Source: Thermoproteota archaeon (GTDB lineage: Archaea; Thermoproteota; EX4484-205; JAAOZO01). Taken from it: a stretch of 64,000 nucleotides of DNA. Location: contig JBGOYZ010000002.1 of NCBI GenBank assembly GCA_041479945.1, positions 7,472 to 71,471 of the forward strand. The letters are read 5' to 3'. Below are positions 60 to 52,932 of the stretch, one piece after another. Positions within the stretch are counted from its first letter, which is position 1, and each line of letters begins with the position of its first letter. A program made the translations under genes and the position numbers. Under the pieces are notes generated by a model. That model worked only from the letters and a program-made list of their open reading frames with translations. It made no database searches and had not been told where the DNA came from.

Positions 60-758
60 TCAGGGCTCTTGGCGGTTCTGCTGTTTCCGCTCCGCGTTTG
101 ACGATTCGACAATAGTGTCCACGATGGGGAGGAGTTCTCTCAGGTCGTCGACGAAATAGTGGGCAATCTCCTCTAGTTTGCTCTTGTCCCTGCTTCTAGG
201 TTTGAACGCGACCCTGTACCCACAAGCTCGGAGCAACGCGATGTCAAACTGGGTGTCACCAACGCCTAGCACTTCGTCGAGTTCCAGCCCCTGCTCGGAG
301 GCCATCCTCTTGAGGGCCTCATCCTTCTTGAGAAGGTCAACCCTCGGAAGCACATCGCCGGTCAGCCTGCCTTGTTGATCAAACACCAGTCCGTTAGCAA
401 CGCAGCATTCTATGCCTAGGTCCTGACACACCATGTTGGCGAGCAAGTCAAGACCGCTACTAACCACGCCCATCTTGAGGCCCCTTTTCCTCAGGCCGCA
501 TGTGCACTCCCGAGCGCCCTTGCTGAACGTGAACCCTGATAGGATCTTCTCGAGAACTGATCGGCTGATCCCAGCGGGCCAAGCTGACATATCGCGTTTC
601 ATGAACTCAGCATAGTCTATCTCCCCTCTTTCGTACTTCTCCAAGCCGTCTTCTCCCTTCTGTTCGGTCCCGAAAAACTCGTGGACTCTTCCCCAACTGC
701 TCTTTCCTTCAATCAGGGTTCCATCGAGGTCGAAGACCACCATGCGCACTGGTTTCAT
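60..758 (-). CDS. HAD-superfamily hydrolase, phosphoserine phosphatase-like
   Basis: N-terminal motif MVVFDLDGTLI (the HAD DxDG[T/V] nucleophile motif) and C-terminal GDTQFD (motif IV). The track ORF extends to 875, but the ATG at 758 (MKPVRMVV...) avoids overlap with the divergent dcd-like gene. Confidence 0.7.
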   Translation of the reverse strand: MKPVRMVVFDLDGTLIEGKSSWGRVHEFFGTEQKGEDGLEKYERGEIDYAEFMKRDMSAWPAGISRSVLEKILSGFTFSKGARECTCGLRKRGLKMGVVSSGLDLLANMVCQDLGIECCVANGLVFDQQGRLTGDVLPRVDLLKKDEALKRMASEQGLELDEVLGVGDTQFDIALLRACGYRVAFKPRSRDKSKLEEIAHYFVDDLRELLPIVDTIVESSNAERKQQNRQEP

Positions 759-850
759 GAGAATAGCACCTCGTGCTCCATGAGCGTTCGCCGTCTCAAC
801 TCTCAGGCTCAATCCGAGATTGCTTATAAGCAACTCACAAAGGGCGAGGA

Positions 851-1369
851 ATGTTGGCCGTTGTTCCAGGTGCACAACTGATAAGGGACAAGGTCGTAAC
901 GGCTCTCAGAGACCTCCAAGCTCAGACACAACCGGCTGGCATCGACCTGACCGTGGATCGTATTGAATCCTTCACGACTCGACCTTCGTTCACGTTGGAT
1001 TTGCTGGAGGCCGCCAAGACCAAGGAAGTTCGCAGCAAGAACTCCGCCTACGTTCTGAGAACTGGTCCGTATAAGTTGACGTTCTCAGAGGAGATCAGGA
1101 TACCTGCCAACTGCTGTGGTCTCGTATTGCCTAGGTCATCCCTCCTCCGATCAGGTGTTGCGGTGCACACCGCGCTCTGGGATCCCGGATACGAGGGCAA
1201 AGGAAAAGTTCTGCTGTCTGTCCTAAACAGGAAAGGTGCAGTCATATCGATCGGCGCTCGCGTCGCCCAACTGGTGGTCCTTCGACTGTCCGGAGAGCCG
1301 CATAGGATCTACTCAGGACAGTATCAACGCGAGGGGATGGACTCTACACAGGAGGAATCATCGCGGTAA
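851..1369 (+). CDS. dcd: dCTP deaminase/dUTPase-family protein
   Basis: dUTPase-fold motifs GLVLPRSSLLRSG and DPGYEG. ATG at 851 is preceded by GGGCGAGGA. Length 172 aa. Confidence 0.65.
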   Translation: MLAVVPGAQLIRDKVVTALRDLQAQTQPAGIDLTVDRIESFTTRPSFTLDLLEAAKTKEVRSKNSAYVLRTGPYKLTFSEEIRIPANCCGLVLPRSSLLRSGVAVHTALWDPGYEGKGKVLLSVLNRKGAVISIGARVAQLVVLRLSGEPHRIYSGQYQREGMDSTQEESSR

Positions 1370-1898
1370 GCAGCTGGCCCGTCAGCACCTCGACCACCAT
1401 TCCGATAGCCAGCAGGGCCAGAGCCAATATCAGCGATGCGACCAAAGGTCCTACTTCATCGTTTATTCCTTTTCTGGAGAGTATCTTCTGCATGATCACT
1501 ATGTTCTCGGACAGCACCAGGGAATATGCCGAGAATTCAATCAGAGCGTGCGGCATTATCACCGTGAGTAAGAACAACGTTTGGGGGTTCTCTCCCGCTT
1601 GCTGGGCTATTGCGCTCAATGCAGCACCCGTGGTGAACGAGGCCATGAGGGCTGAGCCCAGCCCCAGGAGAGGAACGAGGAAGGTCACGGCGATCATCGC
1701 GTTGTTGAAAAAGATTACCATGTAGCCACCTGCCTGAACATCTTGGGCCAGTCCCTCCATCTCCTGCGCCAGTGTGGGATCAGGCGGTGACAACGTACCT
1801 GCCAATATGGAACCGACTATTACTGCGAATGATAGCAGGATCAGCGGCCTTCGTCCCTTCGCGAATATCTTGCTGAACGATGAGGTGATTGACTCCAT
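1344..1898 (-). CDS. SpoIIM-like/DUF95 integral membrane protein
   Basis: About 5 predicted TM helices with the overall topology of the stage II sporulation protein M (DUF95) family common in archaea. Confidence 0.55.
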   Translation of the reverse strand: MESITSSFSKIFAKGRRPLILLSFAVIVGSILAGTLSPPDPTLAQEMEGLAQDVQAGGYMVIFFNNAMIAVTFLVPLLGLGSALMASFTTGAALSAIAQQAGENPQTLFLLTVIMPHALIEFSAYSLVLSENIVIMQKILSRKGINDEVGPLVASLILALALLAIGMVVEVLTGQLLTAMIPPV

Positions 1899-3281
1899 CT
1901 ATTGTCCCTCGGTCAAACTGAATGCCAGCTTGGCCAAGGTCGATATATAGTTGTCCCTGTCCATCGATTCTCGCTCGGGATCCATGAGTGTCAGCCTGAC
2001 CTCTCCGAGCACCTGATACTTGTTCTCCTCAGCCTTTCTCAGCTTGGCCTCGATGGTCTTTGCCTTCCTACGGTCCGCCTTGGTGACACCTTTCCTCGTC
2101 CTCCTAATCAAGTCGGTCGATGCAATGCCAACTTCCAGCAAATCGGATATCTTCCGTGTCATCGGCATCAGTTCGGTCCTCAGTGGGCCCTTCAGTTGTC
2201 TCGCGATCTGGCTGATCGCTCTTCTCTGCAGGATCAGGTAATCAGACAGAGCTTTGGCAGAATTCTGATCCCTTGGATTGTGCTTCACAGACTCCAACAG
2301 TTGGCTGAGCCTCTCGGACTCCCTGAAGTCTAGGAACGAGCCCCTTGAATGCTCTGAGAGGCTCAGGAAAGGCTTCCACATCGCCTTCGGCATCAGTCCC
2401 TTTACGGCCCTCTCCCACGCCTTGTCTGGATCATATCTGACGGGGTCTTTGAAGTACTCTCTGTAAGTCAGTAATGCAAACTTCGATGCCTCGGCCTGAT
2501 TCATCGGGTTGGACACGAAACCAGAGAGGTATTCAAGCAGGTCAGGGGATCTCCTTCTGACGGGCCCGAGGAAGATCTTCAGCTGGTGGGCGTAGTCGTT
2601 CACCGGGTAGTTGTCCCAGAGGAACGGTTTCCTTCCTATGCCCGTGCCAAATGAATCTGCGTCCTCTGCCGTTATGGATGGTGTGCAGACGTATTTTCCA
2701 GTCCACATGATATAGACGCTTTGGGATAGCTTCTCCCCGAGAGCCCTGTGGTAATCAGTCGGCTGTACACCTATGTACTGCGTCGGGCAAAGGATCAATC
2801 TGGATCCATCCCCCACGATCTCCCTCAGCTTCTTCTCCAACTCGTTCCCCAAGTGAGCGTGGGCTTCTCCAAGACTGCTGAATGCCGCCTTATCCTCTTC
2901 ATGCTGCAGTTCATCAGGTATGTCATCTAGGAACAGGCCGAACCATTCGACGCCCAGTTTCGCGACCTCAGCAAACTTCGTGGACAGTTTCTGGAAATCT
3001 GAGTCGGATGAGTACCGCATCGAGAGCCCCGGGCTCACTGCAAAGCAGAAGTTCACGCCGCTACGTCTGGATGTCTTCACCAGCTGAGCTAACTTGGCGA
3101 ACAGGCTCTTGGAATATGGCTCTGCCCACTTCTCCCTGTGATATGGGTCATCCTTGGGTGCATATATGTAGACGTTGAATCCATTCTTGCCCAAGAACTT
3201 GATCATGTCCAATCTTGCGGCGTGAGACCAGGGTGGTCCGTAGAATCCCTCAACAACTCCCAGAGGTATCTGTTCGTTCAT
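1899..3281 (-). CDS. Glycoside hydrolase family 84 (O-GlcNAcase/beta-N-acetylglucosaminidase homolog)
   Basis: Strong colinear match to the GH84 catalytic domain: VVEGFYGPPW, YIYAPKDD, FAVSPGL and the catalytic FLDDIP (DD dyad), then WTG...PFLWDNYPVNDY. A C-terminal helical region follows, as in OGA. Confidence 0.85.
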   Translation of the reverse strand: MNEQIPLGVVEGFYGPPWSHAARLDMIKFLGKNGFNVYIYAPKDDPYHREKWAEPYSKSLFAKLAQLVKTSRRSGVNFCFAVSPGLSMRYSSDSDFQKLSTKFAEVAKLGVEWFGLFLDDIPDELQHEEDKAAFSSLGEAHAHLGNELEKKLREIVGDGSRLILCPTQYIGVQPTDYHRALGEKLSQSVYIMWTGKYVCTPSITAEDADSFGTGIGRKPFLWDNYPVNDYAHQLKIFLGPVRRRSPDLLEYLSGFVSNPMNQAEASKFALLTYREYFKDPVRYDPDKAWERAVKGLMPKAMWKPFLSLSEHSRGSFLDFRESERLSQLLESVKHNPRDQNSAKALSDYLILQRRAISQIARQLKGPLRTELMPMTRKISDLLEVGIASTDLIRRTRKGVTKADRRKAKTIEAKLRKAEENKYQVLGEVRLTLMDPERESMDRDNYISTLAKLAFSLTEGQ

Positions 3282-3337
3282 GTGGACTAACTGAGCCTCG
3301 TGAAGTTATAAGGCTGAATGGACTTGATTTTGGCGAA

Positions 3338-3841
3338 ATGTCTCCAAAGATCGGCATAATGGGAGACTCGCATGACAATCTCGGACTCATGAGAAAAGCA
3401 GTCGACAGGTTCAACCGCGACAAGGTCAGTCATGTGCTCCACACAGGAGACATAGTGAGCCCATTTGCCGCGAAGGAACTTGGCAGACTCAGCTGCCCCT
3501 TCACTGTAACCTTTGGCAATAACGACGGCGAAAGGCTGATGCTGAGGGATGTTGTGACTTCGTTAGGTGGAAAGCTCCTATGGCCACTGGCCACTCTGTC
3601 AATTGATGGCAAGAAGATTGCACTTGTTCACGGAGAAGATCGGGACTTGGTCAGTGCTCTGGCCAGAAGTCGAGACTTCTCACTCGTGGCATGTGGCCAT
3701 TGGCACGATCCCGCTGTTCAGAAGACAAGGAATGGCGACCTCGTCGTGAACCCCGGAGAAACTTGCGGCTACCTAACTGGAAGGGCAACGGTAGCGGTCG
3801 CGGATCTGGAAACTAAGGAAGCTAGCATCATAGACCTTTGA
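3338..3841 (+). CDS. Metallophosphoesterase (YfcE/MJ0936-like phosphodiesterase)
   Basis: Calcineurin-like motifs GDSHDN, HTGDIV, GNND, VHGH, GHWH. The true start is most likely the ATG at 3338 (MSPKIGIMGD); the track's upstream extension overlaps the GH84 gene. Confidence 0.75.
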   Translation: MSPKIGIMGDSHDNLGLMRKAVDRFNRDKVSHVLHTGDIVSPFAAKELGRLSCPFTVTFGNNDGERLMLRDVVTSLGGKLLWPLATLSIDGKKIALVHGEDRDLVSALARSRDFSLVACGHWHDPAVQKTRNGDLVVNPGETCGYLTGRATVAVADLETKEASIIDL

Positions 3842-4322: not shown

Positions 4323-5357
<1,035 letters not shown>

Positions 5358-5435
5358 TCAGCAGAGCCAGTTCAATGGGATAAATCTTTCACACGGTTCG
5401 GAAGAGGAGCGAGCAGTCTGGCAGGATCTTATGCC

Positions 5436-6704
5436 ATGAGTGTCAGACTTTTATCTCCGATTCTGCGGGGTCTTGTGGAGGAAAATGAATTGAGCTTCAG
5501 AACGCTTGATGACGTGGATGTCAAGGACAAGACCGTCATAGTGAGGGTCGACCTGAACTCCCCGCTGGACCCGAAGACCCTGAAGATAATCGACGATAGC
5601 AGGATCAGGCTTCATTCGGGGACGATAAACGAGATCGCTGACAAGGGTGGGAGGGTGGTTGTTCTTGCGCACCAAGGTAGGAAAGGCGACGAGGACTTCA
5701 CTGACCTGTCTCAGCACGCGGAGGCCATGAAGAAGTACATGAAGCATCCGCTGAGATTCGTTAAGGACGTGATAGGGCCCGAGGCGGTCGGTGCCATCCG
5801 ATCCCTGCAAGGCGGACGCGTCCTGCTCCTAGACAACGTTAGGTCCCTTGACGAGGAGACAAAGGAGTTGTCCCCTCAAGAACACGCAAAAGGCAAGCTC
5901 GTGTCTACTCTTTCTCCGCTGGCAAACCTCTTCGTCAACGACGCATTCGCGGCGGCCCACAGATCTCACGCTTCGATAGTCGGGTTCACGGTAACCCTGC
6001 CATCCGTAGCGGGCAGAGTCATGGAAAGGGAGCTCAACGCGCTGAAGAGAGTCTACGAGGAACCTGAGAAACCTTCCGTGTACGTTTTTGGAGGTGCGAA
6101 GCCAAAGGAGACTTTCGTGGTGATCGGTCATGTCCTAGACAAGGGAATAGCTGACAGGGTGCTCGTCGGCGGCATGGTCAGTACAGTCTTGGCATACGTT
6201 TCTGGACAAGATGTCGGGGAAAAGAACGTCCAAGAGATCAAGGGGAAGGGGTTCGAGAAGATGTTTCCAACCGCGAAAGCCATAATGGAGAAATACCCAG
6301 ACAAGATCGTGATCCCAGTTGACGTGGCCATAGATGTGAATGGCAAGAGAAAGGAAGTCAAGAAAGAGGATTTCCCGCCCTCCTCAGAGATAAGGGACAT
6401 CGGCTCCGAGACGATTCGACTCTTCTCAGAGTTTGCCAAGGATGCGAGATCACTTGTGATTAACGGGCCGCTTGGTCTCTTTGAGGATGAGAAGTTCGCT
6501 ACTGGAACGGTCGAGTTCATACGTTCGCTCTCGAAGTCCAAGGCATACTCGGTCATGGGAGGCGGACATTCGGTAGCTGCTCTGGAGCAATACGGCATCG
6601 CTGACTGCATAAGCTACATCAGCACTGGCGGTGGTGCCATGATCTCCTATCTCTCGGGAGAGCGCCTTCCTGGAGTGGAAGCCCTGAAGGCGGCGGCGAA
6701 ATAG
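5436..6704 (+). CDS. pgk: Phosphoglycerate kinase (archaeal type)
   Basis: VRVDLNSP near the N-terminus, AHRSHAS, and C-terminal GGGHS...ISTGGGA. Overall colinearity with archaeal PGKs. Length 422 aa. Confidence 0.9.
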   Translation: MSVRLLSPILRGLVEENELSFRTLDDVDVKDKTVIVRVDLNSPLDPKTLKIIDDSRIRLHSGTINEIADKGGRVVVLAHQGRKGDEDFTDLSQHAEAMKKYMKHPLRFVKDVIGPEAVGAIRSLQGGRVLLLDNVRSLDEETKELSPQEHAKGKLVSTLSPLANLFVNDAFAAAHRSHASIVGFTVTLPSVAGRVMERELNALKRVYEEPEKPSVYVFGGAKPKETFVVIGHVLDKGIADRVLVGGMVSTVLAYVSGQDVGEKNVQEIKGKGFEKMFPTAKAIMEKYPDKIVIPVDVAIDVNGKRKEVKKEDFPPSSEIRDIGSETIRLFSEFAKDARSLVINGPLGLFEDEKFATGTVEFIRSLSKSKAYSVMGGGHSVAALEQYGIADCISYISTGGGAMISYLSGERLPGVEALKAAAK

Positions 6705-6775
6705 ACGAATCCCACACCTGCGAGAGCAAACGGACCGAACCTTTTTCTACTGACCGGGAATAGGAGAGAAGTAGC

Positions 6776-7744
6776 TTGAGTTATGTGCTCGCACTCGACG
6801 GGGATGACACTAGGGCTATAGCGGTTGCCGTGTCGAACGATGGCAAGACTCTGGCCAAGTCAACTGCGGGCCCCTGCAGCCCATCAGTGATGAGCCTGAA
6901 CGAGGTCGCCAAGGCGGTCTACTTTGACCTGACCGATCTGATCCTATCCGCTAGGCTCTCCTTCTCCTCATACGGTTGGGCGTCCATCGCAATTGAGGGC
7001 CTGAAGGGTGCTGGGGACAAGGACGGACTCTTCTCGGACATATCTTCAGTGTTGGGTTCAACTTCCAAGTTGAGCGTTCATTCGGCCCAGGAAGCTGCGT
7101 ATGCCGCGGTGTTTCCACAAGGAGGTGGAATAGTTGTTTCGCTTGGAACCGGATCGAGCGCGTACGCCGTCAAGAACGGCGCGGAGGTCAGAGCTGGCGG
7201 CTGGGGACACACCGTAGACAATGAAGGAGGTGGCTACTGGCTCGGAGCAAAGGCGATCGGGGCAATCATGCAGTCGTACGATGGCAGAATGCCTGGGACT
7301 TCTCTCTCCCAGATGGTGCTGAAGTGGGTATCTGCCGAGCGCCCAGATAACCTGCCAGAGTGGTGCAAGAGCGCGTCCGCCAAAGACATAGCTTCGATTT
7401 CAACTCTGGTGCTGGGCGCAGCAAGATCGGGAGACAAGGTCGCTACAGGGATACTGAAAGAGGGTGCGCGAGAGCTGGCCAAGATGGTGTGGGCGGTATG
7501 GGAAAGGACCGACATCCGCGTTCCGGTGGAAGTGGCATTCACAGGTCAACTTGTAAAGGAAGGCCCCCAGATGATCCAACTTATCATGGACGAGCTGAAG
7601 AACTTGGGCCTTGAGGCCACAGCTAGAGTTGGGATCTACAGTTCGCTCTTGGGTGCTGAGTTGTTAGCCCTCAGGTCGAGTGGCGTATCCGTGAGCCAAG
7701 AAATGACTGAGGGGCTCAAGTCCTCGTTGGAATCCATATTATGA
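6776..7744 (+). CDS. BadF/BadG/BcrA/BcrD-type ASKHA ATPase (N-acetylglucosamine kinase-like)
   Basis: N-terminal LALDGDDT (actin-fold phosphate-1 motif) and glycine-rich LGTGSSAYA. TTG start at 6776 is preceded by AGGAGAGAAG. Confidence 0.6.
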   Translation: MSYVLALDGDDTRAIAVAVSNDGKTLAKSTAGPCSPSVMSLNEVAKAVYFDLTDLILSARLSFSSYGWASIAIEGLKGAGDKDGLFSDISSVLGSTSKLSVHSAQEAAYAAVFPQGGGIVVSLGTGSSAYAVKNGAEVRAGGWGHTVDNEGGGYWLGAKAIGAIMQSYDGRMPGTSLSQMVLKWVSAERPDNLPEWCKSASAKDIASISTLVLGAARSGDKVATGILKEGARELAKMVWAVWERTDIRVPVEVAFTGQLVKEGPQMIQLIMDELKNLGLEATARVGIYSSLLGAELLALRSSGVSVSQEMTEGLKSSLESIL

Positions 7745-7836
7745 TGGGCTTCCTTAGGACTCATCATATGGCTAGGGCGGTCGCAGTATTCTCACGCTTT
7801 TATCTCGGCGCATTTCCGGAGGGCGCGGCATAGAAC

Positions 7837-9225
7837 ATGACGAACAAGTTCGAACTGGGTATGTGGGCGTACATGGACTTCAGGGAACGCCCCCTTGGTG
7901 ACGAAGACATGAAGAGGTTCGTGGACTGGTCCGAGAAGGTCGGAGTGCAGAAAGTTCTGATGAATGTCAGGACAGATCTGTTCGCTGACTACCCAAACAG
8001 CAAGATGTTGCCTACGACCGCTAAGTTCAGGAACTGGAATGCCCTCGGCGAGGCGACGAAGCGGCTTCATGATCTCGGCAAGGAAGTTCACGCAATGATA
8101 GTAGTTGCGCCGTGGTTGCGGCTGGGGTGGACACCAAGGTCCCGGGGTCAGGTCGACTTCAGACCAAAGCCTGCACTGTTGGACAACCCGGATTGGCTGC
8201 CAACAGACAGGTACGGGATAAGGGAGGACAAAGCGCCGTTCTTCGGGTCGCAGTTGGATGTTGACATCGGAAAGCCAGAGGTTCGGCAGTTCATAGCGGA
8301 TCACGCAGAAGACATCCTGACCGCCAATCCGGAGCTAGACGGCATTCACTTGGACTTCATCAGGTTCAGGTACTGGAAATCATCCATCACAATGGACATC
8401 AGGAGTGGCGCTGACTTCGGCAGACTGATGGACAAAGGGGACATCTTCTACGTGACCAAAGAGGTGACTGGCCTCACGGGACAGGCTGCCATCAAGCTTG
8501 CGTATCATCTGAAGGATAATGACAGGACCAAGTACGCACCCTACGACGGCACAAAGGCTGTGTTGGAGAGGGAGTTCGCCTACTGTTTCTGCGACAGCTG
8601 CCTCGGGAGGTTCCAGGCGGAAACGGGCGTCGAGATCCCGAAAGCCCTGCACAGTACGAGGGAGAAAGCGGATTGGATACTGGGTACACAATCAGACAAG
8701 TGGTATTCATGGAGGGCCTCACAGGTCACCGACCAGGTCAAACTGGTCAAGAAGCGGATGAGGGATCTCTCTAGCAGGTACAAGCTATCCGCTGCAACCT
8801 TTGGTAGATTCCCACCTCATGGAATCGTGACCAACGATGTTCCTCCGAAGCACGACGACTATGATTCAGTGCTCAGGGATCTCGGACAGGACTGGATATC
8901 ATGGGCGAATGAAGGACTCCTCGACTTCGCAGAACCGATGCTGTACTGGACAAGCCCTAAGGATCTCGGAGCCATTACCGGGAACCTAATGAGCAGGATG
9001 AAGAACAGGAGTTTCCCCATATATCCCGGGGTGCTAGTTTCAAACGAGTACGTGGTCGAGGCAAACCAAGTGCCCGAATATGCGAAGAGCGCAATGCAGG
9101 CTGGAGGATCAGGAATCACTCTATTTCCGTACGCCGGCTGGTGCGCACCACACCGCAAGGCATGGGGACTGCCTGAGATCCGCGACTATGACGACGCCCT
9201 CATCGGCTTGAGAGGTCGGGAGTGA
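7837..9225 (+). CDS. Putative TIM-barrel glycoside hydrolase-like protein (GHL/DUF4015-like)
   Basis: DGIHLDFIRFRYW segment reminiscent of glycosyl-hydrolase-like families. Carries a Cys cluster CFCDSC. Family assignment is tentative. Confidence 0.35.
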   Translation: MTNKFELGMWAYMDFRERPLGDEDMKRFVDWSEKVGVQKVLMNVRTDLFADYPNSKMLPTTAKFRNWNALGEATKRLHDLGKEVHAMIVVAPWLRLGWTPRSRGQVDFRPKPALLDNPDWLPTDRYGIREDKAPFFGSQLDVDIGKPEVRQFIADHAEDILTANPELDGIHLDFIRFRYWKSSITMDIRSGADFGRLMDKGDIFYVTKEVTGLTGQAAIKLAYHLKDNDRTKYAPYDGTKAVLEREFAYCFCDSCLGRFQAETGVEIPKALHSTREKADWILGTQSDKWYSWRASQVTDQVKLVKKRMRDLSSRYKLSAATFGRFPPHGIVTNDVPPKHDDYDSVLRDLGQDWISWANEGLLDFAEPMLYWTSPKDLGAITGNLMSRMKNRSFPIYPGVLVSNEYVVEANQVPEYAKSAMQAGGSGITLFPYAGWCAPHRKAWGLPEIRDYDDALIGLRGRE

Positions 9226-9331
9226 GCAGAGATGGTTACTGTCCCACTACCACTCGAACTGATCGGAACACTCAAGCTAATATGGTGAGACGGGGGGACA
9301 GCAGCGAGGGATCAGGGGTGCAAAGGCAAAG

Positions 9332-10630
9332 TTGCTGACAAAGAGTGGAAAACTGATATACGCGATGGGCAGACTTGGCTCGTCGACTCTACTTTCTCTT
9401 GTCGACCTCGCGACATTTTGGCTCTATCTTGACTATTTCGGCCTCGGAGGCATGCTCACTGGCATCGCGTTTGCCATCGGGAAACTCGTGATCGCGTTCT
9501 TCGGCTGGTACTTCGGTTATCTGAGCGACATAACAGTGTCACGACGATGGGGAAGACGTAGGCCCTACATCTTGGCTGGATGCCTGCTGCTTGCTTTCTC
9601 CACGGTCATGCTGTTCGTCCCAGACTATTTCATCCCAATCGGTGATCAGTGGCCTCTTTTCCTATATGCCACGTTCTTTCTCAGCTTGGCGAACCTCAGC
9701 TACGGCCTACTGAGCACGCCCTACATGGCTTGGCTCGCAGAGATAGCCGACCCAGGTGAACGAGTGGAGGTGTCTGCATATCAGAACGTCTTCGGCATGG
9801 GGGCGCAGGTCGTGGGGACGCTCATCGGCTTCGCGCTACCGGCACTCAGGGCTGGCGGTGCATCTCAAGCCCTATTTCTATTGCTCGGCTTGGGAGTTGT
9901 CGAGATTGTCCTCTATGTTCCGGCTCTCATCAAGATAAGAGAGAAAGACAGGCCAATCCCGAAACCCAACGTTCGTCGGGAGATCTCGATAGTCTTGGCC
10001 AACAAGAACTATCGGAACTGGTTTGTCCTTCAAGGTTTGATGTCGATGCCAACGGCGATTCTTGCGAGTCTGATCATGACTTACCTGCAGAAGGTTCTCA
10101 ACGTCACAGGAACTCAGTTCATGATAGTAGGCGGCCTAATGCTCTTGGTCACTATGTTACTCTTCCCGGTCTGGGCGATGATCTCTAAACGAGTGGGGAA
10201 GAAGAAGCCTATCACAGCGTCCCTCTTGATCTTGGTGTTCTCGCTTCCGCTGACCTTGGTCTTTGGCCAGCCGTTCCTCAGCTCCATTCCCAGCATAATC
10301 CAAGGGGTCGTCTTCATATCGTTGTTCGGAATCGGCATTTCCGGTTGGTATCTTCTCCCGAATCCAGTGACCGCGGACATGGCCCAGGAAGACGAGATGT
10401 CTGGAGGGGAGGCCAGGGCTGGCAGCTACAACGGTCTGATCTCTATCCCTCTGAATGTGCTCCAAGCTCTAGCTCGTTTCATAGCTGGCTTCATCGCGGA
10501 TCTGCCACTTGTCGCAGGTCAGACCTACTCCATGGGGTTGCTCGTGTGGGGTCCAGTGTCCTCCGTCCTACTGATCCCGTGTCTGTATGTCTTGGTGAAA
10601 TACGTGCAGACGGATCCGCTGAAGAAGTAG
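9332..10630 (+). CDS. MFS transporter (GPH/sugar-cation symporter-like)
   Basis: 12 predicted TM helices and an MFS signature GRRRPYIL after TM2. The start may instead be the ATG at 9365. Confidence 0.75.
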   Translation: MLTKSGKLIYAMGRLGSSTLLSLVDLATFWLYLDYFGLGGMLTGIAFAIGKLVIAFFGWYFGYLSDITVSRRWGRRRPYILAGCLLLAFSTVMLFVPDYFIPIGDQWPLFLYATFFLSLANLSYGLLSTPYMAWLAEIADPGERVEVSAYQNVFGMGAQVVGTLIGFALPALRAGGASQALFLLLGLGVVEIVLYVPALIKIREKDRPIPKPNVRREISIVLANKNYRNWFVLQGLMSMPTAILASLIMTYLQKVLNVTGTQFMIVGGLMLLVTMLLFPVWAMISKRVGKKKPITASLLILVFSLPLTLVFGQPFLSSIPSIIQGVVFISLFGIGISGWYLLPNPVTADMAQEDEMSGGEARAGSYNGLISIPLNVLQALARFIAGFIADLPLVAGQTYSMGLLVWGPVSSVLLIPCLYVLVKYVQTDPLKK

Positions 10631-10768
10631 TCAGAGCACACACTCCGGGAGCTACTGGGAGAAGAAGACGATCTTCCGTCGGGCACCCGACCGGTCCGAT
10701 GCAGTCGTGGATAGCGTTAAGTACCCGGAAATCGCCTGCAGAACGAATCAGGTAGAGGTAATCAGCAG

Positions 10769-11188
10769 TTGTCGTTGTCTTCCCGCAGAAGCGTTCCATC
10801 CAAGCAGTCCGCATGGCACCCCGTTGTTTTCCCCGATAAGTGCGATGGGTGCCAGAGCTTGGAAACGCCCAAATGCATCGCGTTCTGTCAGCACGAAGTA
10901 TACGCGATTCTTGACGACAAGGCAATCGTCTTCAACCCACAGAACTGTGTGCAAGGTTGCACGGCATGTCGCCCGGTTTGTCCGCATGGCGCAATAGAGT
11001 TCCCTCTGGATCCGGGGTTTGCAAGAGCCAAGGACAAGGCTTGGACCGAGGGCCTGAAGCAGCTCACCTGCAGGCAGTGTGGCAGAGTGTTCTGGTCAGA
11101 AAGCCAACGAGATACCTGCTATGACTGCTCCGGGAAGGTTTATGCTGACGGTCGCCTGCACGATCGGAAAGGCTCTCCGCGCCCATAG
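10769..11188 (+). CDS. Cys-rich ferredoxin-like protein with C-terminal zinc ribbon
   Basis: CDGCQS...C and CVQGCTACRPVCP clusters, then CRQCG...CYDCSG. TTG start is preceded by GAGGT. Confidence 0.4.
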   Translation: MSLSSRRSVPSKQSAWHPVVFPDKCDGCQSLETPKCIAFCQHEVYAILDDKAIVFNPQNCVQGCTACRPVCPHGAIEFPLDPGFARAKDKAWTEGLKQLTCRQCGRVFWSESQRDTCYDCSGKVYADGRLHDRKGSPRP

Positions 11189-11242
11189 CTACGCTCCCTC
11201 AGATTCCCTCGATTCACGATTGTGCCATTATCATTCGTTCGT

Positions 11243-12289: not shown

Positions 12290-12681
12290 TACTCGGATCC
12301 CTTGTCCCGGAGCGCCTCTATGCTTCGCGTCGCAACGAGGTCGACACCTAGGCCCAAGACGTTATGCATGACTATGTCGCCTATTCTGACGGGTGCTGCT
12401 ACTGTCAGCTCTGCAAGCTCCCTTGAGCAGTCCATGATTCTGTCTTTGGGGATTGGTTTCGTGGATCTCACCGGGCACACTGGCGCCACACCGCCTTCGA
12501 TGCCAACTATTGAGAAGAAATCCCTCATTGGGGCTTCGACCTCTCCGAACACGTACTCCTCCCCTCTGGAGCATGCCAAGCCCTCGGCCTTCACTGCCTT
12601 CCCGCCTTCTATGGTCACCTTGGCCTCGCATCCCACGGGACAGACAATGCACGTGATGATCCGTTCAATCTTCTCAGTCAA
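12289..12681 (-). CDS. DUF1667 domain protein (small subunit of GlpA-type G3P dehydrogenase complexes)
   Basis: CPVGC...C motif. Sits downstream of glpA and the NAD(FAD) oxidoreductase, the conserved three-gene arrangement. Confidence 0.7.
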   Translation of the reverse strand: MTEKIERIITCIVCPVGCEAKVTIEGGKAVKAEGLACSRGEEYVFGEVEAPMRDFFSIVGIEGGVAPVCPVRSTKPIPKDRIMDCSRELAELTVAAPVRIGDIVMHNVLGLGVDLVATRSIEALRDKGSE

Positions 12682-15398: not shown

Positions 15399-15407
15399 GT
15401 ATCGCCA

Positions 15408-16967: not shown

Positions 16968-17044
16968 GCTTCTCTGATCCTTCGGTTGATAATAAAGTAT
17001 TGAAGGCGCCTGAGTAAAGGCGCGAGCGAATGAAGGCAGCACTC

Positions 17045-17276: not shown

Positions 17277-18944
17277 TTACCTGACTTTGGAGTCGACTCT
17301 GCCGGCGGCTCCCCAGAACCTTTCTAGTATCCTCTCAAGCCCCTCCGGTTTTCTCTCACTCAGCCAGAGTCGTGCATATGAGTTCGCCAGAGAGATGAGG
17401 TCTGACGGGACGATCTCTCCACTGATCCTCCTCATTCCAGCATGAAGACACTTCCTGATGAACTCCAGATCCTCCGGCAGGTTGACGCAACAGAGTTCAT
17501 CGAGAACCTCTCTCCATGACTCGGCGAGGGATTTCCTCTCGGCCTCGCTCATCCTGTAGTATTGGAAGTCTGCGAACAGTACGTGCTTGATCTGCTCCGA
17601 GACCTCAGGTTTGCCGAAGAGCTTTCTGGCCTTGAGGACCTCCTTTGACTCGCCTGAGAGCATGATCCATTTGTCCTCCCATCCGCGGTTGCCCTCGCTT
17701 GCCTCGGCGCATGCAACGAGAAGTGGTTCAAGGAAGGAGAAGAGACATTCCTCGCCGTCGTCTCCCCACGCCGTGACCATATAGCCTGGCAGTTTCTCTT
17801 CCTTCGCGGCCTCGATGAAGTTGGCGATGTTCACCGTTGCCATCTCGAAGTTGGGATAGTATCTGTGCCAGTTAGCGAATCCTGGGCAGACAACTTGCTG
17901 GCTCTTCCTTTTCCCGAACAAGTTGATCTTGTCCCTGAAGTCCTTGACATCCCTCATGGCGTAGTCCCAGTTGGCGATCACAGCACCTTCCCATATGTCG
18001 CTCTTGGCCACCTCCGCCCATTTTGATCTCTCCCTTTCTCCACCTAGGTACATGCCGGTCAGCATGTCCCCCCACAGGAGCGGGATCTTGCCGCTCTGCT
18101 TCACCATGTCTACCATCTTCTTATGGTGGGTCATGTAGAGGTCTGTTCCCTTGAATTCCCATGTCTTGTCCAAGCTCTTCCCTCTGCCCATCGCCCAAGT
18201 CTCATCCCCACCGATGTGAATGTGTCTCGACGGGAATCTCAGCAGAACCTCCTGCAGCAAGTCATATGAGAACTTGGCCGCCTCTTCGTCGCTGACATCC
18301 AGACAACCTTCCTCTGGCCTGTACCACTCGCTGTACTTCCGGTATTCCGGAAGCGAAAGAATGTGCTCCATGTGTCCAGCCAACTCAAGTGAGGGGAACA
18401 CTTCTATGCCCAGTTTCTTGCCGTATTCGACGACCTCGCTCAGTTCCTCGTCGCTCAGCCTTCCCCTGTGCTTTCCGATATCAGGGTCCTTCTTCCAAGG
18501 GAATAGATCCTCGAAGTATATCGCGAAGTGGTTGTACCTCAGTACGAACAGCCACCTGAGTATTCTCTTGAATGTCTCGACAGTGGGAACTCCGCCCCTT
18601 GCGATGTCCAGATGGTACCCCCTGAAGGAGAAAGTCGGACCTCCATCGATCTTGATCTCAGGAAGGTAGCCCTCTCGCTCTCTAGCTAGCTGCAGAATGG
18701 TGGCGTAGTTGTAGTACTCATCCCCCCAGATCCTTACCTCGCCCGACGTGACTTCTATGCCTGCTCCCGGGCGCGATACTTTCGATATCTTCCACTTCCC
18801 TTTTGGAACGTGAAACTCCTTGGCGATGAATTCATGGAAGTTGGCGAAACCGTCGAACTCAAACCATTTGTCCGCATCCTTCATGGCTGTGTTGAGACTC
18901 CTAGCCTCGCACATAAAAGTGTGTTGTGACCATCTGGAGATCAA
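17277..18944 (-). CDS. Glycoside hydrolase family 20 beta-N-acetylhexosaminidase
   Basis: GH20 catalytic H-x-G-G-D-E motif (HIHIGGDE) and TIM-barrel colinearity (GYHLDIARG...). The start may be internal (MKDADKW at about 18884). Confidence 0.8.
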   Translation of the reverse strand: MISRWSQHTFMCEARSLNTAMKDADKWFEFDGFANFHEFIAKEFHVPKGKWKISKVSRPGAGIEVTSGEVRIWGDEYYNYATILQLAREREGYLPEIKIDGGPTFSFRGYHLDIARGGVPTVETFKRILRWLFVLRYNHFAIYFEDLFPWKKDPDIGKHRGRLSDEELSEVVEYGKKLGIEVFPSLELAGHMEHILSLPEYRKYSEWYRPEEGCLDVSDEEAAKFSYDLLQEVLLRFPSRHIHIGGDETWAMGRGKSLDKTWEFKGTDLYMTHHKKMVDMVKQSGKIPLLWGDMLTGMYLGGERERSKWAEVAKSDIWEGAVIANWDYAMRDVKDFRDKINLFGKRKSQQVVCPGFANWHRYYPNFEMATVNIANFIEAAKEEKLPGYMVTAWGDDGEECLFSFLEPLLVACAEASEGNRGWEDKWIMLSGESKEVLKARKLFGKPEVSEQIKHVLFADFQYYRMSEAERKSLAESWREVLDELCCVNLPEDLEFIRKCLHAGMRRISGEIVPSDLISLANSYARLWLSERKPEGLERILERFWGAAGRVDSKVR

Positions 18945-46320: not shown

Positions 46321-46524
46321 GTTGACCGATCAATTCGACTGGCCGTTGCCTTAAATGGCTTCTTGGCGCGCAGGCCTATTCCGATTTGCCATTGCCGACG
46401 CTCGTCCAAGAGGCTGGGCAGAACGGGAATCGCAATATCCATTCCACCGGCCGCAAAGGACGTCAATGCAGGTGCTGGGTCTGTGTTTTGGAAAGCGGCG
46501 CCTTATATAGACAAAGGATGTATC

Positions 46525-48601: not shown

Positions 48602-50617
48602 TCATTCCACATACTCCAGCTCACCCTGTAGACGGATGTCTCTTGATGAGCTGCCCACGAGAATACCGAACTCGCCTGCCTCGGTGGTCCAGTGACCCGT
48701 CTTCTCATCCCAGAAGGAAAGGTCTTCCTCCGTGAGTGTGAATGTCACAGTCTCCGTCCGTCCGGGGTCTAGGTGCACCTTCTCGAAACCCTTCAGTTCC
48801 TTCAGGGGGCGTTCCACGCTCGAGGTAGAGTCATGCACGTAGAGCTGGACGACCTCTGCACCAGCACGGTCTCCCGCGTTGGTCACATCACCTATTACCT
48901 CCATGCCGCTGATCCTCAGGTTCGCGTAGGCAAACTTGGTGTACGATAGCCCGTGTCCAAACGGGAACAATGGTTCTATGCCTCTCGTGTCGAAATGGCG
49001 ATAGCCAACGAAGACCCCCTCATCGTAGTGGACCTCCTCTGCCCCGGGGAAGGTTCTCTCCGAAGCATGCGCGGGAGAATCCGAGAGCCTTCTCGGAAAC
49101 GTCAGAGGTAGCTTCCCAGAGGGGTTCACGTCGCCGAACAGCACTGCCGCGATTGCACGGCCCGCCTCCTGCCCCGCGTACCAAGCCTCCACCACGGTCG
49201 GCACCCTCTCAAGCCAGCCGTCCATCGTCACTGGGCTACCGTTGATCAAGACCACGACTGTCCTCGGATTCGCTTCCACGGTGCCGTTGATCAGCGCAAC
49301 CTGATCGGGCGGTAGCTCAAGGCTCTTCTTGTCCTCGCCTTCAGTGTCAATCCCTTTGAGCAGACCTTGGGACAGTCCTGCGAAGATGATTGTCACGTCG
49401 GCCTCGGCAGGGTTCCTCACGATTTCGATCTTCTCGCCGCATCGTTCCCTCAGACCATTGAGTGGTGTGACTTCATAGGGCGGCCTGACCATGGAGCTGC
49501 CGCCCTTCAAGCCCATCTTCTTGTCCGCGTTCGGCCCCAGCACTGCGATCCTCTTGACCTCGTCGGTTTTCAATGGCAGTGTGTCACGTTCGTTCTTGAG
49601 CAGGACGATGCCCTCTTCCGCGATCCTCCGGGTCAACGCCTGATGCTCAGGTGTGTTCCGGCTCCCAGCTGGCAGCGTCTTCTCGTCGTCGAAAAGACCT
49701 ACGAGGAACATCACTCTCAACAGGGCGGTCAGGTTTCTATCGAGCGCGTCCTCGCTGAACTTGCCCGCTTCGAATGCTGCCCGCAGTGCCTTCTCACTGT
49801 ACCTGCTGCCTCCGCCCGGCATTTCCAGGCTGAGCCCCGCGTTCACACAGCCTTCAGTGCTAGTCGTTGGGTTTGCCGCGTACCAGTCCGAAACAACGAA
49901 CCCCCTGAAACCCCACTCTTCCCTCAGCCTTTCTGTCAGCAGGTCATGGCTCTCGCAGCAGTAGGTCCCATTGACCTTGTTGTAAGCCCCCATCACCGAC
50001 CATGCATCCGCCTCCCTTATGACCGCCTCGAAGGCCTGCAGGTAGATCTCCCGCAATGCACGCTCACTGACCTGCGAGCTGACCTTCGTGCGATTCGTCT
50101 CTTGGTTGTTGCATGCGAAGTGCTTCACACATGCAGCCACGCGTTGGCTTTGGATCCCCTGCACGACAGCAACCGCCATCTTGCGGTTCAGGTATGGGTC
50201 CTCCGTCTGGTACTCGAATGTCCGCCCGCCTAGCGGAGTTCGATCGATGTTGACCGCGGGGGCGAGAACCATTTGATACCCGATCGAGCGCTCCTCCTGG
50301 GCCAGAGCTGCTCCGAACTGTTTCGAGAGGTCAGGATTCCACGTGGCTGTTCGGCAGATGCTTGCGGGGAAGTACGTGCCCTTCTTGAACACGGATAGAA
50401 TCGCGCCGAGCCCATTGGGACCATCGCTCATCCTAAACCCCTTGATGCCCAGTCGTTCTACAGGTTTCGTCGACCAAAGGTTCTTGCCGGCGCATAGTGA
50501 GAACTTCTCCTCCAAGGTCAATCGTTTCAGCAGGTCAGCTACCCTCTCCTCGATGCCCAACCTCTGGTTCATGAAGGGAAGCCTTGCTAGGTCATCGCGG
50601 GACATTTCCTCGTTCAC
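48602..50617 (-). CDS. Glycoside hydrolase family 3 beta-glucosidase (BglX-type) with C-terminal FnIII-like domain
   Basis: GH3 N-terminal domain KHFACNNQE and catalytic SDW nucleophile region (GFVVSDW). Length 671 aa. Confidence 0.85.
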   Translation of the reverse strand: MNEEMSRDDLARLPFMNQRLGIEERVADLLKRLTLEEKFSLCAGKNLWSTKPVERLGIKGFRMSDGPNGLGAILSVFKKGTYFPASICRTATWNPDLSKQFGAALAQEERSIGYQMVLAPAVNIDRTPLGGRTFEYQTEDPYLNRKMAVAVVQGIQSQRVAACVKHFACNNQETNRTKVSSQVSERALREIYLQAFEAVIREADAWSVMGAYNKVNGTYCCESHDLLTERLREEWGFRGFVVSDWYAANPTTSTEGCVNAGLSLEMPGGGSRYSEKALRAAFEAGKFSEDALDRNLTALLRVMFLVGLFDDEKTLPAGSRNTPEHQALTRRIAEEGIVLLKNERDTLPLKTDEVKRIAVLGPNADKKMGLKGGSSMVRPPYEVTPLNGLRERCGEKIEIVRNPAEADVTIIFAGLSQGLLKGIDTEGEDKKSLELPPDQVALINGTVEANPRTVVVLINGSPVTMDGWLERVPTVVEAWYAGQEAGRAIAAVLFGDVNPSGKLPLTFPRRLSDSPAHASERTFPGAEEVHYDEGVFVGYRHFDTRGIEPLFPFGHGLSYTKFAYANLRISGMEVIGDVTNAGDRAGAEVVQLYVHDSTSSVERPLKELKGFEKVHLDPGRTETVTFTLTEEDLSFWDEKTGHWTTEAGEFGILVGSSSRDIRLQGELEYVE

Positions 50618-52005: not shown

Positions 52006-52932
52006 TCATATGGAGACATCGTTCAACGTGACGCCTAGTATAGAGTTCGCTTGGGGATATGCATCTCGAGCGGGCTGGATGCAGTAGCTGAAAGCGATGA
52101 ATGCTCTGTCTCCGAAGGGCATCACCGCCGTATAACCCCCTCCCCCATTTGGAAGGTCAGGGGCCAAGTCGAACGGACCTGTCCAAGCTTCCCCATCGTC
52201 AGCCGAGAGGTAGAACCCCGTGCGCAACCTCACCGGCATCAGTCTGCCGACTGCGACTAGGGCGCCCCCAACGTATGCGAGGACTGGGTGACGGAGGCGG
52301 ATGTTTGCCGGTTTTGACTCTGACCAGGTGAACCCATTGTCCTTGCTGGCCTTCTGGTAGTTCTCCATCGCTCTGTCCAAGTGGCATTGACAGAGGAGGC
52401 TGCCGTCTGGCCGGAAAACTACCGTGGGGTAACACGGATCCTCGTGAAACTCGGATGGCTGGAACACCAGGGATCTCCTCCGCCAGCTTGAGGCGTTGTC
52501 CTCACTCACGTACAGGATGATGCCATCCAGACTGTAGGCGATCATGTACAGAAGTCCGTCCCGCAGGAGAATGTGGGAAGAGGAGCCAAAATGTCCTCTT
52601 GGTCTGATAGGATCCACGTATCCCATGTACTCGTAGCCTTTTCCGTTGTCGGAGCTTATGCAGTATGTGCTGTTCAGCAGGCTTTCAGGATGTGGTAGCT
52701 TCTCATCCGGGCTTGCTCGTTGAATCACAAGGATGATCTTGCCGTCCGCCGTCAGACCAAATGCAGGGTTGCGGGATCCGACTCGCTTGTCGCGTTCATC
52801 GTAGGCGATGCTGTCCTGCCGCCAACTCCTCCCCTGATCACGACTCCGCATCTGATTTATGAAAGAATCCCGTCCCGGGTCGTCTAGGCTGTCTTGGTAC
52901 GCGACCAGCCAGTCCCCGTTGGGAGCTGCCAC
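52006..52932 (-). CDS. BNR/Asp-box repeat protein (sialidase-like beta-propeller)
   Basis: Five Asp-box repeats S-x-D-x-G-x-(T/S)-W: SRDQGRSW, SSDNGKGY, SEDNASSW, SKDNGFTW, SADDGEAW. GTG start. Confidence 0.65.
   Translation of the reverse strand: MAAPNGDWLVAYQDSLDDPGRDSFINQMRSRDQGRSWRQDSIAYDERDKRVGSRNPAFGLTADGKIILVIQRASPDEKLPHPESLLNSTYCISSDNGKGYEYMGYVDPIRPRGHFGSSSHILLRDGLLYMIAYSLDGIILYVSEDNASSWRRRSLVFQPSEFHEDPCYPTVVFRPDGSLLCQCHLDRAMENYQKASKDNGFTWSESKPANIRLRHPVLAYVGGALVAVGRLMPVRLRTGFYLSADDGEAWTGPFDLAPDLPNGGGGYTAVMPFGDRAFIAFSYCIQPARDAYPQANSILGVTLNDVSI

Follow-up and report, generated by a model that had tools for sequence, protein, structure and literature searches.

GH84 enzymes are best known as the O-GlcNAc erasers of eukaryotes, and a candidate GH84 gene on an archaeal contig raises the question of what such an enzyme does in that host. 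We analyzed the gene within the 64-kb stretch of DNA on which it lies (hereafter the window; Table 1), together with homologous loci. The open reading frame is on the minus strand, starts with ATG and encodes 460 amino acids. Pfam profile PF07555 (NAGidase) matched residues 8-299, corresponding to profile positions 2-285 of 295, at 343.3 bits (E 1.5e-102; gathering cutoff 25), which is far beyond chance, and the best sequence match in the PDB was TtOGA from Thermobaculum terrenum (5diy, E 1.2e-74). Each of the four motifs on which a first-pass annotation had based its GH84 assignment is present: VVEGFYGPPW at residues 9-18, YAPKDD at 40-45, FLDDIP at 117-122 (nucleotides 2916-2933) and WDNYPVNDY at 222-230. 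The NCBIfam equivalog NF041654 ('GlcNAcase', NagJ-like, 732 amino acids) scored 261.9 bits against a curated cutoff of 1000, with the match confined to positions 147-542 of the 732 in the profile; the window protein has neither the N-terminal nor the C-terminal modules found in that subfamily. Judged by its sequence, the gene encodes a GH84 beta-N-acetylglucosaminidase, as originally observed, and it is a credible, fairly ordinary addition to the known family.

Table 1 Features of the GH84 locus and of other genes in the window
Feature	Coordinates	Strand	Basis
SpoIIM-family (PF01944) multi-pass membrane protein	1344..1898	-	Pfam 31 bits; hydrophobicity
GH84 beta-N-acetylglucosaminidase gene, TtOGA-type minimal architecture	1899..3281	-	ORF, PF07555, PDB 5diy match, AF2, Foldseek
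C-terminal helical-bundle (stalk) domain, ~residues 285-460	1902..2429	-	model helices 285-458; aligned with 5DIY bundle
Catalytic (beta/alpha)8 barrel, ~residues 7-282	2436..3263	-	Pfam 8-299; alternating strand/helix in model
Codons of catalytic pair Asp119-Asp120	2922..2927	-	FLDDIP translation; alignment to TtOGA D119/D120 and CpNagJ DD
Palindromic TTATAA, candidate archaeal TATA box (inference)	3306..3311	.	sequence
BadF/BadG-family kinase, MurNAc/GlcNAc-kinase-like; candidate consumer of released GlcNAc	6776..7744	+	PF01869
GHL10-like TIM-barrel protein, no signal peptide	7837..9225	+	PF02638 37.5 bits
GPH/MFS_2 glycoside:cation symporter; candidate importer of oligosaccharide substrate	9332..10630	+	PF13347 117 bits
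GH20 beta-N-acetylhexosaminidase, GcnA/GH20C-like; second candidate cytoplasmic GlcNAcase	17277..18944	-	PF00728 71 bits
GH3 enzyme, BglX/xylosidase/arabinopyranosidase type	48602..50617		
BNR_2 sialidase-like propeller, weak match	52006..52932		53 bits; PDB E 0.0011

The catalytic dyad is intact, as had been claimed. Asp119-Asp120 matches D119/D120 of TtOGA column for column (5DIY is the D120N mutant and reads 'dn' here), is also aligned with the 'dd' of CpNagJ (2XPK), and is invariant among 215 homologs. At least 212 of these 215 sequences share G12, K43, D119, D120, Y169, W193, W222, N224 and D229; of these residues, the ones outside the pair (G12, K43, Y169, W193, W222, N224 and D229) are identical in the window protein, TtOGA and CpNagJ; N258 is invariant in a 42-sequence alignment. 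In this family the first aspartate polarizes the 2-acetamido group, with the second as the general acid/base, and catalytic residues described elsewhere are D298, the catalytic acid of CpOGA, and D174/D175 of hOGA (PMC4683255). Since the active site is completely conserved, hydrolysis by the window enzyme would be expected to be retaining and substrate-assisted. Asp119 would polarize the substrate's own 2-acetamido group, which would attack C1 to form an oxazoline/oxazolinium intermediate, with Asp120 as the general acid/base and with the sugar held by Lys43, Tyr169, Trp222, Asn224, Asp229 and Asn258.

The AlphaFold (AF2) model of the protein (pLDDT 93.7) superposes on 5DIY over its full length (TM 0.87/0.86, 457 columns), and with this predicted model as the query all of the top 50 Foldseek matches were GH84 structures (TM 0.81-0.87). 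The protein is thus predicted to consist of a TIM barrel followed by a helical bundle, a domain described for TtOGA (PMC4683255). No signal peptide or transmembrane segment was found, in agreement with the first-pass annotation: hydropathy over 19 residues peaks at 0.88, there is an in-frame stop 8 codons 5' of the ATG, and the catalytic domain begins at residue 8. These features point to a cytoplasmic enzyme.

Among the known systems, TtOGA, a bacterial cytosolic O-GlcNAc hydrolase, is the most similar, being likewise ~460 amino acids long with a GH84 barrel and a helical bundle, and without a signal peptide or N-terminal or carbohydrate-binding domains. The catalytic aspartates even share their numbering, and D229 of the window protein corresponds to the substrate-binding D228 of TtOGA. 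The two differ in host, with only ~39% identity over the catalytic domain, and Tyr230-Ala231 of the window protein takes the place of Gly229-Gly230 in TtOGA, the second of which is the glycine that contacts the peptide. CpNagJ (CpOGA) from Clostridium perfringens and BtGH84 from Bacteroides thetaiotaomicron (E 1e-61 to 1e-58, TM ~0.83) have the catalytic domain in common with it and match it in every active-site residue, but their crystallized forms are longer (594-737 amino acids) and carry an extra N-terminal domain. Both are secreted or periplasmic enzymes that act on host glycans. Human OGA (MGEA5) also combines a GH84 domain bearing the DD dyad with a stalk/helical bundle and is nucleocytoplasmic (PMC4683255). 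At 916 amino acids it is much larger, and its pseudo-HAT domain and long disordered insert have no counterpart in the window protein.

In order to determine what the enzyme may be used for, we considered the surrounding genes. Those named in the first-pass annotation (GH20, BadF/BadG, GHL10 with MFS_2, GH3 and BNR_2) are all found at the coordinates and with the families given, but its description of a GlcNAc-processing neighborhood holds only in part. The kinase, the GHL10-like barrel and the GPH transporter (6776..10630) form a core, 3.5-7 kb from the GH84 gene, that is conserved near it in orthologous loci. The GH20, GH3 and BNR genes, on the other hand, lie 15-50 kb away amid unrelated genes, and the BNR match is weak. 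The GH3 enzyme was rejected as a NagZ, scoring 350-550 bits with NCBIfam arabinopyranosidase, beta-glucosidase and xylosidase models and 43 bits with that for NagZ. The GH20 protein (best PDB match 2epk, E 2.9e-21) has no N-terminal hydrophobic segment, and any link between it and GH84 would be putative. Pfam scans of the ORFs detected no NagA, NagB or MurQ in the 64-kb window, and tblastn searches of it with MurQ, NagA-like and SIS queries returned zero matches. Scans of the window for tRNA and Rfam families were also empty.

The best PDB match of the kinase was a MurNAc/GlcNAc kinase (8zo3, E 3.8e-25), followed by the hexokinase of S. tokodaii, and its score of 87 bits with NagK_SO3507 is under the cutoff of 370, so that its specificity is only a candidate one. 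It is conserved near GH84 in loci L087, L089 and L091. Of the marks of an amino-sugar catabolic module, an amino-sugar kinase near a glycosidase is present and conserved, whereas MurQ and/or NagA with NagB are absent from the window and may be encoded elsewhere in the genome. PGK, GAPDH, DUF123 and phosphodiesterase genes separate the kinase from GH84, and the two are not in one operon. The GHL10-like family is confined to Thermoproteota, with 14 clusters in the whole database, and the AF2 model of the window member (pLDDT 84) best matched Cwp19 (E 5.5e-16) and then the C-terminal domain of PgaB. This resemblance to Cwp19 and to a GlcNAc-binding PgaB domain counts toward a catabolic role. The symporter scored 80 bits with TIGR00792 (gph), below the cutoff; it is kept in orthologous loci of at least 71% identity and is missing from L087 and L089.

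Gene context in the lineage and in bacterial operons suggests that the role of GH84 is catabolic. Next to its kinase, where the window has the GHL10-like gene, the 51% relative (L089) carries a bona fide MurQ (TIGR00274, 374 bits against a cutoff of 302); among orthologous loci, MurQ was seen only there. Kinase-SIS/MurQ-GH84 operons recur independently in Clostridia and Neobacillus. For example, bacterial locus L016 has the order kinase-MurQ-GH84, L015 and L011 have kinase-SIS-GH84 with 4-nt overlaps, and L020 has murQ-murR-PTS-GH84. The MurQ slot and the recurrence of these operons both favor catabolism. Furthermore, two loci encoding GH84 proteins of the same minimal architecture are rich in sugar-utilization genes, one with GH2 and GH94 (L092) and the other with an ABC importer, GH42, a ROK kinase, SIS and a NagA-like amidohydrolase (L093). 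GH84 enzymes devoted to glycan breakdown have been documented (PMC10245121).

Our best explanation, taken as a whole, is that the protein is probably an active, soluble, cytoplasmic exo-beta-N-acetylglucosaminidase that frees GlcNAc from imported GlcNAc-capped oligosaccharides, possibly including muropeptide sugars. Import, for which the nearby GPH symporter is a candidate, would bring in GlcNAc-capped di- or oligosaccharides, among them perhaps chitobiose, N-glycan cores or the GlcNAc-MurNAc of bacterial cell-wall debris. GH84 would cut off the terminal beta-GlcNAc in the cytoplasm, and the MurK/NagK-like BadF/G kinase would phosphorylate the freed amino sugar so that it can enter central metabolism; the Cwp19/PgaB-like barrel beside the kinase may work on the same glycans. 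This would be a NagZ-like role rather than a signaling one. In the NagZ-MurK/NagK-MurQ-NagA recycling pathway, NagZ is a cytoplasmic exo-beta-GlcNAcase that feeds a BadF/G-type amino-sugar kinase and the MurQ etherase, and the association proposed for GH84 is seen in L089, L016, L015, L011 and L020. The analogy is functional only, since NagZ belongs to another GH family (GH3) and fold lineage. We know of no demonstration that a GH84 enzyme acts on GlcNAc-MurNAc. The scavenging of glycans and GlcNAc that the first-pass annotation preferred thus gains support from the conserved core and from the MurQ/SIS contexts of relatives. Against it, the window lacks NagA, NagB and MurQ, and the conserved proximity of GH84 and kinase could be plain lineage synteny. 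The kinase could also simply be a glycolytic hexokinase, because it resembles the broad-specificity hexokinase of Sulfolobus and has PGK and GAPDH as neighbors.

The closest solved relative is itself a further point against catabolism. TtOGA, which deglycosylates O-GlcNAc-hTab1, is in vitro a true O-GlcNAcase of proteins, and a cytosolic OGT occurs alongside it (PMC4683255). The window enzyme could likewise be the eraser in an archaeal O-GlcNAc cycle whose GT41 OGT is encoded elsewhere, as in T. terrenum and metazoa. TtOGA is its best match in both sequence and structure, and it has the OGA-like traits of a helical bundle after the catalytic domain and of no signal peptide, transmembrane segment or carbohydrate-binding module. 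A segment of 12 residues that follows the DD motif (within DELQHEEDKAAFSSLGEAHAHL) is also common to both proteins and missing from the alignment of CpNagJ. However, human OGA is more distant (~170 bits) than the bacterial enzymes (203-255 bits). A Pfam scan found no GT41 or TPR protein in any ORF of at least 180 amino acids in the window, and there was none among the called genes past its left end (L081-L088); ORFs 45826-48573 and 61649-63730, which have no Pfam match, are not recognizable OGTs. The absence of a GT41 OGT from the window makes such cycling unlikely. The base rate is low as well, because a CAZy screen in 2015 yielded a single prokaryote with both cytosolic partners (PMC4683255). 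The genes around the enzyme in its own clade, like those of independent bacterial operons, suit catabolism rather than signaling, which sets it apart from TtOGA. We consider an eraser function unlikely, and the fuller proposal, that true O-GlcNAc cycling takes place within cells of the lineage, with this TtOGA-type enzyme removing marks set by a transferase (GT41 or other) encoded outside the window, is a little less likely again. If true, it would mean that reversible protein O-GlcNAcylation exists in Archaea.

A different function is suggested by the SpoIIM-like gene, which the catabolic reading leaves unexplained. Its ATG directly follows the GH84 stop (CAA TAG ATG), so the two genes are probably co-transcribed, with no further gene in the operon, and they stay together in every ortholog of 51-100% identity. 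SpoIIM of B. subtilis scaffolds cell-wall hydrolases, and a similar protein could place GH84 at the cytoplasmic face of the membrane, where it would trim GlcNAc from dolichol-linked or S-layer/N-glycan intermediates and so recycle the cell's own glycoconjugates. This also appears unlikely. The contact that it presupposes between GH84 and the SpoIIM-like protein is putative, and no glycosyltransferase or oligosaccharyltransferase genes are nearby. A profile built from four SpoIIM-like orthologs and searched against GH84 loci found the pairing in the window lineage only; it is absent from a 45% archaeal relative (L090) and from 80 other GH84 loci, and SpoIIM was therefore rejected as a family-wide partner.

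The gene could instead be a recent bacterial transfer, or a binning or assembly contaminant, with no integrated role. GH84 is an overwhelmingly bacterial family, and the nearest named relatives beyond the window clade are bacterial (Armatimonadota, Sumerlaeaceae and Firmicutes, 38-49% identity). The host itself is archaeal, as claimed: all named PGK relatives are from Thermoproteota, Bathyarchaeia, Brockarchaeota or Nitrososphaerota, and a 90%-cluster mate of GAPDH is labeled Thermoproteota archaeon. It is an uncultured sediment archaeon of a Thermoproteota lineage near Bathyarchaeia. The identical GH84 protein is found on 12 contigs from independent assemblies, with like flanks in the six examined; orthologs of 93-51% identity share the archaeal synteny (kept, for example, at 71%, 65% and 51%) on contigs of up to 1.47 Mb, and the regional G+C of 0.53-0.54 equals the window average. 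The candidate TATA-like box of archaeal type is upstream of both divergent genes, at 24 nt from the GH84 ATG and 29 nt from that of the phosphodiesterase, and it is retained upstream of the orthologs in L087, L091, L089 and L090. A sigma-70 promoter scan of the window did no better than chance and has no bearing on an archaeon. In a neighbor-joining bootstrap tree (209 sequences, 294 columns, 200 replicates), the protein falls in a 14-member archaeal clade (bootstrap 0.93), one member of which sits in another archaeal context, beside IF5A and Lsm genes. Conserved synteny largely refutes the recent-transfer or contaminant reading, which we regard as very improbable, and GH84 is a stable chromosomal resident of the archaeon. 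Any transfer into the lineage would have been ancient, and no donor can be named because all deeper nodes of the tree have support below 0.06.

GH84 had been called uncommon in archaea, which is a relative matter: at least four GTDB Thermoproteota species have GH84 proteins of a different, multidomain architecture. That CAZy lists these families as 'ranging from archaea to man' has been reported before (PMC4424335), and the literature searched held no characterized archaeal GH84 and nothing specific on GH84 or O-GlcNAcase from archaea or Bathyarchaeia. The proteins from Thermoprotei/Thermofilaceae MAGs (L001, L002, L006 and L017) are 43-47% identical to the window protein in the catalytic domain, but they are 808-833 amino acids long, with N-terminal GH20b and C-terminal F5/8-type-C (CBM32-like) modules, and fall outside the well-supported window clade. 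In tblastn searches these four loci shared no neighbors with the window. Archaea thus have at least two GH84 architectures, and the sequences define a well-supported archaeal clade of the minimal, predicted cytoplasmic TtOGA type.

Independent operons link cytoplasmic GH84s of this predicted type to amino-sugar kinases and to MurQ or SIS enzymes. A less radical novelty than O-GlcNAc cycling would be that GH84 is, by analogy, the equivalent of NagZ in a pathway by which archaea consume the sugars of bacterial peptidoglycan. In practical terms the gain is modest: the gene probably offers a new source from which to obtain a minimal, stable OGA-like enzyme. Should the catabolic reading prove true, it would give a concrete enzyme to the idea that archaea in sediments feed on GlcNAc-containing detritus, perhaps bacterial walls, and would caution against taking every cytosolic prokaryotic GH84 for a component of O-GlcNAc signaling.

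The 460-aa window protein carries an intact glycoside hydrolase family 84 (GH84) active site. Pfam PF07555 (GH84 NAGidase) matches residues 8-299 (343 bits, E 1.5e-102), and the four motif blocks read by the first-pass annotation are all found, at residues 9-18, 40-45, 117-122 and 222-230. The top PDB sequence match was 5DIY, the D120N mutant of the Thermobaculum terrenum O-GlcNAc hydrolase TtOGA (E 1.2e-74), followed by C. perfringens NagJ (CpNagJ), B. thetaiotaomicron GH84 (BtGH84) and human OGA. D119-D120, the proposed dyad, falls on the catalytic positions, aligning to "dn" in 5DIY and "dd" in CpNagJ. In TtOGA, D120 is the catalytic acid, D119 stabilises the 2-acetamido/oxazolinium group, and D228 is an O4/O6 ligand (PMC4683255). 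Nine residues (G12, K43, D119, D120, Y169, W193, W222, N224 and D229) are the same in the window protein, TtOGA and CpNagJ, each being kept in at least 212 of 215 GH84 homologs in a profile alignment, and N258 is invariant in a 42-sequence alignment. Because the active site is completely conserved, the predicted chemistry is substrate-assisted retaining hydrolysis.

An AlphaFold2 model built with 42 homologs as input was confident (pLDDT 93.7, pTM 0.92); in it a (beta/alpha)8 barrel (about residues 7-282) precedes a helical bundle (285-458). All top Foldseek matches were GH84 structures; 457 columns aligned to 5DIY (TM 0.87/0.86), and therefore both domains match. This minimal two-domain architecture is that of TtOGA, whereas NagJ and BtGH84 are multidomain, secreted enzymes. 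No signal peptide, transmembrane segment or N-terminal extension was found in the protein: the barrel begins at residue 8, there is an in-frame stop 8 codons ahead of the ATG, and over 19 residues hydropathy peaks at only 0.88. It is thus predicted to be soluble and cytoplasmic and is of the minimal TtOGA type, consistent with its failing the NCBIfam NagJ-like equivalog cutoff (262 vs 1000 bits).

The identical protein was found on 12 contigs, among them NCBI assemblies GCA_964405495.1 and GCA_041500725.1 and sequences from JGI, ENA and Logan, with the same flanking genes at all six places shown. The adjacent GAPDH has a 90%-cluster mate labelled "Thermoproteota archaeon", and the adjacent PGK has only archaea among its named relatives (Thermoproteota at 62%; Bathyarchaeia, Brockarchaeota and Nitrososphaerota at 51-57%). 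The order kinase-PGK / GAPDH-(DUF123)-phosphodiesterase / GH84-SpoIIM / dCTP deaminase is kept in orthologs at 71%, 65% and 51% identity, the 65% ortholog sitting on a 1.47-Mb contig, and regional G+C equals the window average. A lone palindromic TTATAA, placed 24 nt before the GH84 ATG and 29 nt from the ATG of a divergent YfcE-type phosphodiesterase, may be a bidirectional archaeal TATA box shared by two leaderless mRNAs; GH84 orthologs likewise retain TATA-like boxes in their upstream regions. Together these features identify the gene as an archaeal chromosomal resident of long standing, and the conserved synteny essentially refutes contamination or recent horizontal transfer. The GAPDH is of bacterial type (type I) and lies divergently beside an archaeal-type PGK, an arrangement kept across the lineage.

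Archaeal GH84s are uncommon, as had been noted, and unstudied, yet not unprecedented. CAZy lists GT41 and GH84 as "ranging from archaea to man" (PMC4424335), and our literature search turned up no study in which an archaeal GH84 had been characterised. Among the best 80 GH84 loci in the GTDB species set, four belong to Thermoproteota MAGs (Thermoprotei, Thermoproteales, Thermofilaceae); these encode proteins of 808-833 aa with GH20b, GH84 and F5/8-type-C modules, differing from the window protein in both architecture and neighbours. In three of them GH20b begins at residues 2-6, so that they apparently have no signal peptide despite their lectin-like modules. Neighbour-joining with bootstrapping over 209 sequences and 294 columns placed the window protein in a 14-member clade of 434-507-aa proteins (support 0.93), with archaeal surroundings for every member whose context was examined; deeper nodes lacked support.

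Coordinates of features in the window and in GH84-bearing loci of other genomes (L-numbers)
Sequence	Feature	Coordinates	Strand	Remark
Window	SpoIIM-family (PF01944) multi-pass membrane protein	1344-1898	-	begins one base past GH84 TAG stop
Window	GH84 gene	1899..3281	-	ORF of 460 codons
Window	TTATAA box	3306-3311		within 3282-3340
Window	phosphodiesterase ATG	3341
Window	GAPDH	4323-5345	-
Window	PGK	5436-6704	+
Window	GHL10-like TIM barrel	7837-9225	+
Window	URO-D-fold paralogs	11243-12289; 58536-59594	-; -
Window	glycerol-utilisation-like cluster	12674-17042	-
Window	long ORF	45826-48573	+	915 aa
Window	GH3	48602..50617
Window	long ORF	61649-63730	+	693 aa
L089	MurQ	937-1854	-	adjoins kinase
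L089	BadF/G kinase	1876-2847	-	adjoins MurQ
L016	kinase-MurQ-GH84	7246-11284		Acutalibacteraceae
L015	kinase-SIS-GH84	155-3527		Clostridia
L011	kinase-SIS-GH84	7910-11290		Clostridia
L020	murQ-murR-PTS-GH84	4731-11731		Neobacillus niacini
L001; L002; L017	GH84, 808-833 aa	9575-12076; 9599-12091; 9608-12034		GH20b + F5/8-type-C (CBM32-like); Thermoprotei/Thermofilaceae MAGs

The first-pass annotation had assigned the neighbouring families correctly and described a GlcNAc-processing neighbourhood, which holds only in part. Near GH84, orthologous loci conserve a BadF/G kinase and a GHL10-like TIM barrel, joined in closer orthologs by a GPH symporter. The best solved relative of the kinase is a MurNAc/GlcNAc kinase (E 3.8e-25), with Sulfolobus hexokinase next. 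The GHL10-like family is tiny (14 clusters among 5.8 billion proteins), and its NCBI-named members are all Thermoproteota. The modelled GHL10-like protein (pLDDT 84) most closely resembles C. difficile Cwp19 and PgaB, in the latter the C-terminal domain that binds GlcNAc; it has a beta-sheet inserted at residues 180-247, a conserved CxCxxC motif (C250, C252, C255) and no signal peptide, though JGI calls relatives "lipoprotein YddW". The wider claim is overstated: the GH20 (GcnA-like), GH3 and BNR genes lie 15-50 kb away amid glycerol, aldehyde, amino-acid and ABC-transport genes, the BNR match is weak, and neither NagA nor NagB was found in the window. The GH3 was rejected as NagZ, being of the BglX/xylosidase/arabinopyranosidase type.

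Elsewhere in the window, a glycerol-utilisation-like cluster encodes an FGGY kinase, a DAO/BFD [2Fe-2S] FAD oxidoreductase and a Pyr_redox_2 protein (GlpK/GlpA/GlpB-like). One of two URO-D-fold paralogs weakly matches methylcobalamin:CoM methyltransferase (NCBIfam), and a URO-D-fold copy is also conserved near GH84 in L087, L090 and L091. Two long ORFs have no Pfam match; the 915-aa ORF is only putative because a weak HD-domain ORF overlaps it from the opposite strand, and the 693-aa ORF encodes a hydrophobic stretch around residue 498.

The contig L089 is archaeal, shares the window's synteny and has a GH84 of 51% identity; in it, the slot next to the kinase encodes the MurNAc-6-phosphate etherase MurQ (TIGR00274, 374 bits vs a cutoff of 302). 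Kinase, MurQ and GH84 also occur together in L016, and Clostridial L015 and L011 carry kinase-SIS(PRK02947)-GH84 genes that overlap by 4 nt, all three being compact operons; L033, L050 and L071 are arranged similarly, and L020 holds a murQ-murR-PTS-GH84 cluster. This bacterial association recurs independently and links GH84 to MurNAc/GlcNAc catabolism. Two minimal-architecture relatives likewise lie in sugar-utilisation loci, one (L093) with an ABC importer, GH42, ROK kinase, SIS protein and NagA-like amidohydrolase, the other (L092) with GH2 and a GH94 phosphorylase. Some GH84 enzymes are documented as devoted to breaking down glycans (PMC10245121).

The MurQ of L089 and the bacterial recurrence shift the balance to catabolism. 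Since the closest solved enzyme, whose architecture the window protein shares, is a genuine O-GlcNAcase and has an OGT partner in the cytosol (PMC4683255), GH84 could act in an archaeal O-GlcNAc cycle; however, no GT41 (the OGT family) was found within the 64-kb window or flanking sequence, prokaryotes with cytosolic GH84 and GT41 are rare, and the gene context is catabolic, which together make such a cycle unlikely. The only hint of a part in turning over the cell's own glycoconjugates is the SpoIIM-like membrane protein, which abuts GH84 translationally (CAA TAG ATG). Every ortholog at 51-100% identity retains that pair, but the partner was not found in 80 other GH84 loci, and the pairing is a feature of one lineage.

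The window GH84 is therefore an intact cytoplasmic TtOGA-type member of a known family, borne by an uncultured Thermoproteota archaeon, uncharacterised and with a predictable mechanism. The conserved kinase, barrel and transporter and the recurrent kinase-MurQ/SIS-GH84 association bear out the scavenging originally proposed and sharpen it to amino-sugar, possibly peptidoglycan-derived, catabolism. Judging from gene context, its role is most likely the cytoplasmic removal of terminal beta-GlcNAc from GlcNAc-capped oligosaccharides, which would be imported, with the released sugar passing to the amino-sugar kinase; candidate substrates include muropeptide disaccharides. MurQ beside the BadF/G kinase in L089 hints that archaea of this type break down a sugar peculiar to the cell walls of bacteria.
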